DNA of 64,000 nt from Escherichia phage Pu-Krd-SF6. Within the stretch, counting starts at the first letter, position 1; every line of letters begins with the position of its first letter. The stretch is taken from sequence record PQ759886. One strand, 5' to 3'. Below the pieces are notes generated by a model. It was not told the DNA's origin. It was given only the letters and a program-made list of their open reading frames with translations, and did not search any database. Below, one piece after another: positions 40,788 through 41,441 of the stretch. A program made the translations under genes and the position numbers.

Positions 40788-40990
40788 ATATAATTAATAA
40801 GATTTTTGGAATTCAGTACATTAAGGTCACATATAAAGTAACATATAAAGGTCCATATACCGATGAACATGAAGAACCACAAGTTAAGTCTATTATATTA
40901 GAAAAGGACCCTAACTGGCCAGTTGAATTTCGTCTTCCTTGCTATGGTCATTGGGCTGATGTTGAAATTATAAGTATTGAAAATGTCTGA
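40784..40990 (+). CDS. hypothetical protein
   Basis: 68-aa ORF. Confidence 0.45.
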   Translation: MNIINKIFGIQYIKVTYKVTYKGPYTDEHEEPQVKSIILEKDPNWPVEFRLPCYGHWADVEIISIENV

Positions 40991-41441
40991 GTTAGAGATT
41001 AGAAGCAATTTTAGATGGCCATCATGCGCATTAAGTAATTTCGCCCATTGGCCTTTCGTTATGGATGGTATTCAATTTGGAGGTCTTGAAGGATTCCTCC
41101 AAGGATGCAAGGTGAAAAACGTTGAACAACAACGTCGTATATTTGGGTTATCCGGGCTTGCCGCCCAACAAGCTGGACGAGCTTATGCTAGAGCTCAGGA
41201 CCGTGGGACCCTCTTCTGGCTTGGAGTTCCGTTTTCAAGATACTCCCCGGCGTGGAAAGAATTATACACAAATGCATATTTTGAAGCAGCGATCCAAAAC
41301 AAGGGCTTTCGTGATGCATTACAAGCCTCGAAAGGAAAAGTTTTGAAGCACAGCATGGCTAGTGGTCTAACAAAAGATGATACAATACTAACCGAAGCTG
41401 AATTTATTGATGTGTTAAACCTATTAAGAGACTCTCTATGA
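40977..41441 (+). CDS. NADAR / YbiA-like (DUF1768) domain protein
   Basis: 154 aa; SNFAHWPFVMDGIQF...EGFLQGCK resembles the YbiA/NADAR signature as I recall it. Confidence 0.55.
   Translation: MKMSELEIRSNFRWPSCALSNFAHWPFVMDGIQFGGLEGFLQGCKVKNVEQQRRIFGLSGLAAQQAGRAYARAQDRGTLFWLGVPFSRYSPAWKELYTNAYFEAAIQNKGFRDALQASKGKVLKHSMASGLTKDDTILTEAEFIDVLNLLRDSL

Follow-up and report, generated by a model that had tools for sequence, protein, structure and literature searches.

The adfN (30.3) orthologue of Escherichia phage Pu-Krd-SF6, a phage-type NADAR protein with a probable role against DarTG1

Introduction

A short open reading frame (ORF) in the genome of Escherichia phage Pu-Krd-SF6 raises the question of whether its product removes ADP-ribose from nucleic acids and, if so, whose ADP-ribosylation it reverses. 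The original prediction, made on a 64,000-nucleotide stretch of this genome (here termed the window), had described the product as YbiA/NADAR-like, had proposed a part in ADP-ribose removal and ADP-ribosylation-based conflict, and had stressed the proximity of the gene for the ADP-ribosyltransferase Alt. The gene proves to be one that is already known, its function having been characterized experimentally in T4; hence, what is presented here is not a new discovery but the placement of a known gene in this genome.

Identity and boundaries of the gene

The window derives from a T4-like Tequatrovirus, shows 100% identity to Escherichia phage Pu-Krd-SF7, and is reversed in orientation relative to the T4 reference. 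Around the ORF, 2.6 kb of sequence match the equivalent DNA of Escherichia phages Pu-Krd-SF1, SF2, SF5, and SF7 at 100% identity and that of hundreds of Tequatrovirus genomes at 90 to 97%. The surrounding genes code for the gp31 co-chaperonin, rIII, 30.9 to 30.1, DNA ligase (gene 30), alt.1, and Alt, and Pfam backs the neighbor assignments (Phage_30_8, Phage_T4_Gp30_7, DUF3045 for 30.1, and ADPrib_exo_Tox for Alt). The gene itself sits between 30.4 and 30.2, in an order shared with T4, T2, and RB69. Its product matches T4 gp30.3 at 149 of 152 residues (98%) with no difference in length, the substitutions being Q22H, S67A, and I125M, and the methionine at position 125 also occurs in the T2 and RB69 alleles. 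The Pfam family PF08010 (Phage_30_3, “Bacteriophage protein GP30.3”) is recovered with 232.6 bits against a cutoff of 36 (E 1.5e-69), over profile positions 1 to 138 of 138. This identifies the gene as the orthologue of T4 30.3, for which the name adfN (anti-DarT factor NADAR) is now used. Given this Pfam match, 1,510 tblastn-positive phage records, and 1,672 clusters of representatives, it is a real, conserved gene, and a chance ORF is excluded.

The ORF list placed the frame at 40977..41441 on the plus strand, with a TTG start and 154 amino acids. Both the list and the sequence bear out the ORF and the motif of the original prediction, with the strings SNFAHWPFVMDGIQF and EGFLQGCK each found in it. 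The start had been placed two codons upstream of the accepted one: by its rule, the ORF lister begins at the first ATG, GTG, or TTG after a stop, whereas T4 (NC_000866) and PQ759887, the record with 100% identity, are annotated from the ATG at 40983, giving 459 nt and 152 amino acids. Only this ATG is compatible with the published numbering of E36 and K43, and with it adfN shares 8 nt with the end of gene 30.4, stop included (ATGTCTGA). The two intervening codons, TTG AAA, are probably not translated. At the other end, the adfN stop and the 30.2 start share an ATGA, which makes translational coupling of the two genes possible. The positions of these and other features are collected in Table 1.

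Table 1. Features of the adfN region of phage Pu-Krd-SF6, in window coordinates
Feature	Position	Strand	Basis or remark
rIII	38561-38809		
RNA-like element, 143-nt core of a 153-nt block	38942-39084	+	Between rIII and 30.9; candidate
Conserved segment upstream of 30.9	39143-39181	+	Holds nearly all of the few columns that are invariant in 7 aligned rIII-30.9 intergenic sequences, T4 included
Gene 30.9	39208-39384		
Terminator-like hairpin	39388-39409	+	Strong; directly after 30.9
Sigma-70-like site	39796-39825	+	TTGACA-18-TAAAAT, 11/12, near consensus; just upstream of 30.7
Two extra codons, TTG AAA	40977..40982	+	Probably untranslated; ORF-lister rule, T4/Pu-Krd-SF7 annotation, E36/K43 numbering
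adfN (T4 gene 30.3), phage-type NADAR, DNA guanine-ADP-ribose glycohydrolase (activity by analogy with T4), 152 aa	40983..41441	+	
E36 codon, catalytic glutamate (= PnNADAR E43, YbiA E48)	41088..41090	+	Invariant in 67 members; HMMER and hhalign
K43 codon, ADP-ribose-contacting lysine (= PnNADAR K50, YbiA K55)	41109..41111	+	At least 90% of 67 members; hhalign
30.3', other frame inside adfN	41122-41346	+	Overlapping gene annotated in T4
H123 codon, replaces last-strand Glu (YbiA family) or Asp (DarG1)	41349..41351	+	Invariant in 67 members
C-terminal helix, residues 138-151, needed for full activity	41394..41438	+	Model; absent from the frameshifted RB69 allele
ATGA overlap, adfN stop/gene 30.2 start	41438..41441	+	Read from the sequence; likewise in T4 and T2
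Gene 30.2	41438-42301	+	Unannotated in most records
Alt gene	44265..46316	+	Pfam ADPrib_exo_Tox, E 1.3e-33

A second gene, 30.3', is annotated in T4 within adfN. Its start, ATG in T4, is ACG here, with only a TTG remaining; an earlier stop shortens the frame in T2, and an internal stop interrupts it in RB69. By these comparisons, 30.3' has the appearance of a fortuitous open frame and not of a conserved gene.

Membership among the NADARs

Direct searches of Pfam, NCBIfam, and PADLOC with the window protein returned no NADAR or DarG match, and the Pfam NADAR family PF08719 (formerly DUF1768) was silent even at an E of ≤1. A single-sequence search of PDB sequences gave only a chance match (3rjz, E 0.7), and PHROGs assigned the protein to an unnamed family (phrog_652). 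The Pfam search for DUF1768/NADAR that had been suggested as a check on the original prediction is accordingly negative and, taken by itself, would have led to a wrong rejection of the NADAR call, Pfam keeping the phage proteins apart in PF08010, separate from PF08719.

The relationship emerges once the family as a whole is considered. Among 67 diverse members of the gp30.3 family, 25 touch PF08719 at an E of ≤1 (best E 1.5e-7); the best relative tested (P0088) scores 32.3 bits, below the gathering cutoff of 35.1, and in the reciprocal direction YbiA touches PF08010 weakly (E 0.004). A PDB sequence search with the 67-sequence profile recovered E. coli YbiA (2b3w) as the only meaningful match (E 0.006), over the stretch SNFA...E..FQ..KF, and hhalign aligned the family profile with YbiA from the E. 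coli K-12 genome over 91 columns (93.9% probability, E 1.6e-7). The fold search returned NADAR structures only, so that the protein has the three-dimensional fold of YbiA and the NADARs, and YbiA is among its top matches in both structure and sequence. When the profile was run against 1.84 billion representative proteins, the top 150 matches listed were all of the gp30.3 type and gave no bridge to other NADAR families. The gp30.3 protein is a NADAR despite the silence of plain Pfam searches, and the YbiA/NADAR-like call of the original prediction is upheld by the fold search, the profile-profile match to YbiA, and the aligned catalytic residues. De Souza and Aravind had earlier included T4 30.3 among the phage NADARs (as cited in PMC11825919 and PMC11543638).

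Catalytic residues and the C-terminal helix

In the Phytophthora nicotianae NADAR (PnNADAR), E43 and K50 contact ADP-ribose, holding the distal ribose and the pyrophosphate (PMC11125620, PMC11543638). The third catalytic residue is a Glu in the YbiA family, an Asp in the DarT1-associated NADARs, and a His in the phage NADARs (PMC11543638, PMC11125620). All three positions are occupied as expected in the window protein, in which E36, K43, and H123 fall on E48, K55, and E125 of YbiA. As the hhalign alignment ends at K122/V124, the placement of H123 on YbiA E125 follows by extension over a single residue. All three are invariant in a nine-sequence set that spans T4, T2, RB69, RB43, a Vibrio phage, Sinorhizobium phage phiM12, and Ralstonia phage RSP15. 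Beyond the catalytic core, the RB69 coding sequence ends after residue 137 (137 amino acids), the helix-coding sequence surviving in another frame. The window allele is full length at 152 amino acids, with the helix of residues 138 to 151 intact.

AdfN and the conflict with DarTG1

The NADARs reverse the ADP-ribosylation of guanine by DarT1 (Schuller et al. 2023, PMC11543638). In vitro, T4 gp30.3 hydrolyzes guanosine-ADPr and leaves thymidine-ADPr untouched (Toxins 2024, PMC11125620), nor is cytidine-ADPr removed by the T4 enzyme (Toxins 2026, PMC12945103); in uninfected cells, gp30.3 does not rescue from DarT1 (PMC11125620). The DarTG1 resistance of T2 and T4 was mapped to 30.3, which was then renamed adfN (Johannesman et al. 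2025, PMC11825919). In that study, deletion of adfN abolished plaquing of both T4 and T2 on DarTG1 cells, ectopic adfN rescued RB69, and purified AdfN stripped ADP-ribose from DarT1-modified DNA, which the E36A mutant did not. The E36A and K43A mutations and a C-terminal truncation each lower the activity of T4 AdfN and weaken its protection, and the natural RB69 allele, in which a 1-nt insertion costs the last 15 residues, correlates with sensitivity to DarTG1 (PMC11825919). We note in passing that the methods of PMC11125620 describe the T4 construct as “gp30.3; residues 1-208,” compared with the 152 amino acids of gp30.3; the figure may include a tag, be a typographical error, or refer to a different T4-like protein.

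Drawing on this literature, we propose the following course of events. In a host with DarTG1, infection would activate DarT1, which would place ADP-ribose on the guanines of the phage DNA and so block replication. AdfN would then cut the N-glycosidic bond between ADP-ribose and guanine, restoring the base and letting replication proceed. AdfN acts, on this view, as a phage-carried “orphan antitoxin” and is a minimal, core-only glycohydrolase of the NADAR fold. The idea of ADP-ribose removal in a setting of conflict, as put forward by the original prediction, has thus been realized in the 98%-identical T4 orthologue, a DNA ADP-ribosylglycohydrolase that counters DarTG1 (PMC11825919, PMC11125620). 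With a probability of about 93%, we take the window gene to be an adfN orthologue whose product is a NADAR glycohydrolase that defeats DarTG1 by de-ADP-ribosylating guanine. In the window protein, the orthology, the fold, the conservation of E36, K43, and H123, and the intact C-terminal helix are observed directly; the enzymatic activity and the DarTG1 phenotype would carry over from what has been published for the T4 protein, its 98%-identical counterpart, and for T2.

Natural inactive alleles do occur, as the RB69 frameshift attests, and the window allele departs from T4 at three residues; a decayed adfN that leaves the phage sensitive to DarTG1 despite possession of the gene is therefore an alternative to be weighed. 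We regard it as very unlikely. Residue 22 lies in a variable column of the gp30.3 family, the I125M change is shared with the allele of T2, a phage that loses its resistance to DarTG1 when this allele is deleted, and 62 phage records contain alleles with 99% or more identity to that of the window. The H22/A67/M125 allele very probably encodes an active AdfN, because it is full length and retains all three catalytic residues and the helix of residues 138 to 151, and by analogy its activity may equal that of T4 AdfN.

Proximity to Alt

The original prediction had drawn attention to Alt as encoded about 3 kb away, and this part is accurate: Alt, the only ADP-ribosyltransferase within the 38- to 46-kb stretch examined, starts 2.8 kb downstream of the adfN stop on the same strand, separated from it by 30.2, 30.1, DNA ligase (30), and alt.1. 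From this arrangement one might suppose that AdfN tunes or reverses ADP-ribosylation by the phage's own transferases, that is, Alt here and ModA and ModB elsewhere in T4. The order alt...30...30.3 is common to T4 and RB69, in both of which alt lies near 30.3, and one Acinetobacter T4-like phage has an Alt-like gene on the far side of the ligase. Yet Alt is a protein-directed enzyme, as judged from its ADPrib_exo_Tox family and from its annotation in the T4 record as a mono-ADP-ribosyltransferase targeting RNA polymerase, whereas the NADARs that have been assayed, that of T4 included, target guanine-ADPr in nucleic acids and leave thymidine-ADPr and cytidine-ADPr alone (PMC11125620, PMC12945103). 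Moreover, tblastn found no Alt-like sequence within 4 kb of the gp30.3 homologues of four distant phages (phiM12, RSP15, Vibrio phage 6E35.1a, and RB43) or within the same distance at either of two nearly identical sites in a single metagenomic phage type. DarTG1 fully accounts for the phenotype of the adfN deletion, and Alt goes unmentioned in the AdfN paper (PMC11825919). Hence, we consider a role in tuning Alt or its kin highly improbable; the proximity of adfN and Alt is ordinary T-even gene order, and the functional emphasis once placed on it is unsupported.

Comparison with other NADAR proteins

The closest counterpart of the window protein is AdfN of T4 itself (gp30.3; Johannesman et al., Nat Commun 2025, PMC11825919), which is the product of the same gene, with the same length, neighbors, and E36/K43/H123 set, and is set apart from it only by the three substitutions given above. 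The DarG1 antitoxins, exemplified by the Geobacter lovleyi NADAR (PDB 8bat) and the E. coli C7 NADAR, are paired with a DarT toxin; no such toxin adjoins the window gene, for which reason we term AdfN an orphan. DarG1 further differs in its catalytic Asp on the last strand, where AdfN has His123, and in an N-terminal extension that forms an electropositive channel (8bat, 219 amino acids); AdfN, at 152 amino acids with 132 residues aligned, is confined to the core. Unlike DarG1, AdfN gives uninfected cells no protection from DarT1, and no PADLOC model matches the window protein. The Phytophthora nicotianae NADAR, solved in complex with ADP-ribose (PDB 8bau), is a eukaryotic, stand-alone protein of 189 amino acids with extra elements, has Glu125 at the third catalytic position, and is 19% identical to the window AdfN. 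[quoted passage not shown] By their published description, they differ in that they were acquired independently from other NADAR branches, need no T-even factor, and are effective in uninfected cells too.

YbiA of E. coli (PDB 2b3w) deserves separate consideration, as its prominence among the structural and sequence matches, together with its RefSeq label of N-glycosidase, would fit a housekeeping enzyme that acts on riboflavin-pathway intermediates or other nucleotide by-products and has no part in counterdefense. YbiA is chromosomal, adjoins dinG, has been linked to N-glycosidase activity on riboflavin intermediates, and matches PF08719 at 133 bits, a family to which the phage protein shows no match. 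However, its Glu125, part of the last-strand signature of the YbiA family, is replaced in the phage protein by the invariant His123. The gp30.3 family is, furthermore, essentially phage-borne (the same 1,510 phage records), and the T4 protein gives a clear phenotype with DarTG1 and de-ADP-ribosylates DNA. We accordingly find a purely housekeeping role scarcely credible and retain the counterdefense role of AdfN.

Dependence on T-even infection and gene 30.2

AdfN-T4 is fully effective only in a T-even infection, the hydroxymethylation and glucosylation of the DNA being irrelevant, and the authors of that work suggest the need for an additional T-even factor (PMC11825919). One tentative and, in our estimate, rather unlikely extension of the counter-DarTG1 reading is that AdfN may need a T-even partner in vivo, for instance, a neighbor encoded in the same direction such as the HAD-fold protein gp30.2, or may have substrates beyond the DarT1 lesions, such as guanine-ADP-ribosylated RNA or the lesions of other guanine-specific toxins.

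The product of gene 30.2 matches nothing in Pfam or NCBIfam. Its residues 1 to 195 give a confident model of the HAD superfamily, with 100 PDB matches at an E of ≤0.001 that include 5'(3')-deoxyribonucleotidases. By our own assignment, the invariant residues D8, D10, K132, D150, and D151 occupy positions like those of the HAD phosphatase signature (Asp-x-Asp, Lys, and Asp-Asp). The last ~90 residues, predicted to be disordered, are rich in His/Pro/Tyr repeats (HPYYTHPYNPYYTHPYHMNPF) and differ in length between phages.

The gene neighborhoods do not tie this protein to AdfN. Three observations had pointed toward a partnership: the HAD fold of gp30.2, the overlap of an NT5C-family enzyme with the gp30.3 homologue in Vibrio phage 6E35.1a, and the gp30.2 homologue 1 kb downstream of that of gp30.3 in RB43. 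However, in each of the five distant T4-like phages compared, a gp30.2 homologue directly precedes DNA ligase, and a gp30.3 homologue adjoins it in only one; phages phiM12 and RSP15 have gp30.3 with no gp30.2 nearby. A dedicated partnership or tight module of gp30.2 and AdfN was rejected, as gp30.2 accompanies the ligase and not gp30.3 in four of the five distant phages, and the lead is weak because 30.2 tracks the ligase rather than adfN.

Other elements of the region

Across the adfN region, a scan for promoters and terminators from 38.4 to 44.3 kb gave 21 sites, compared with 21.1 in shuffled sequence, and just one strong site, the sigma-70-like sequence before 30.7. Together with the terminator-like hairpin after 30.9, this putative promoter would make 30.7 through ligase, adfN included, one transcription unit. 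Within the conserved segment upstream of 30.9 lies the short sequence CCCCTTGAGGGCTTGCG with its small CCC/GGG hairpin. In the phages of Klebsiella, Enterobacter, and Serratia, another, long hairpin (GGGAGC...GCTCCC) comes after the equivalent segment. The segment may serve to regulate 30.9.

Between rIII and 30.9 lies, in addition, a 153-nt block that is absent from T4; in its place, T2 carries 46 nt of unrelated sequence. Its 143-nt core recurs at 85 to 95% identity in 404 phage records, always between rIII and 30.9, in the genera Tequatrovirus, Marfavirus, Karamvirus, and Muldoonvirus (Klebsiella, Enterobacter, and Serratia phages included), and the flanking intergenic DNA is mostly unalignable across these genera. 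Seventeen distinct copies yield an eight-helix plus-strand structure with 98.1% of cells paired. Compensatory double changes occur in 17 of its 44 pairs, compared with 6.3 ± 1.6 in shuffles (none of 500 reaching the observed value) and 2 to 5 in slid controls, and the G-U pairs fit the plus strand only. Folded as a single sequence, the element shows no unusual stability (z −0.6), so that the case for it rests on covariation. A scan of Rfam 15 gave no match at an E of ≤1, a tRNA scan found none, and an exact search for its invariant 20-mer across 185,579 bacterial and archaeal species (one genome each) was negative. A looser 5' pattern found only GC-rich chance matches in coding DNA of viral contigs, and no paper on the element was found in the literature. 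We put it forward, on the strength of sequence comparison, as a candidate for a new phage structured RNA.

Distribution and implications

By tblastn, the gp30.3 protein is present in 1,510 of 50,697 phage records, including those of phages of Escherichia, Klebsiella, Shigella, Aeromonas, Acinetobacter, Vibrio, and others. In the profile search of representatives, the 1,672 clusters were counted at an E of ≤0.001 and include multidomain proteins. Several longer metagenomic relatives (P0108, P0177, P0240, P0156, P0214, and P0218) carry gp30.3-type NADAR domains in predicted architectures that comprise tandem copies (P0108) and fusions to BspA-type leucine-rich repeats, Lgt, an FtsW/RodA-like membrane domain, and a YpsA SLOG domain. 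These predicted multidomain proteins may be true fusions or gene-calling artifacts.

The annotation of the family has not kept pace. Among 40 of the 1,510 records that were sampled, 38 bear generic labels (“hypothetical protein” and the like), one is unannotated, and one, that of Ralstonia phage RSP15, reads “GP30.3 family protein”; the GenBank record matching the window (PQ759887) likewise labels adfN a “hypothetical protein.” The value of adfN lies in annotation, as its function was established in 2024-2025 and the records still call it hypothetical. An intact adfN predicts DarTG1-type resistance of a therapeutic or laboratory T4-like phage, and an RB69-like frameshift predicts sensitivity.
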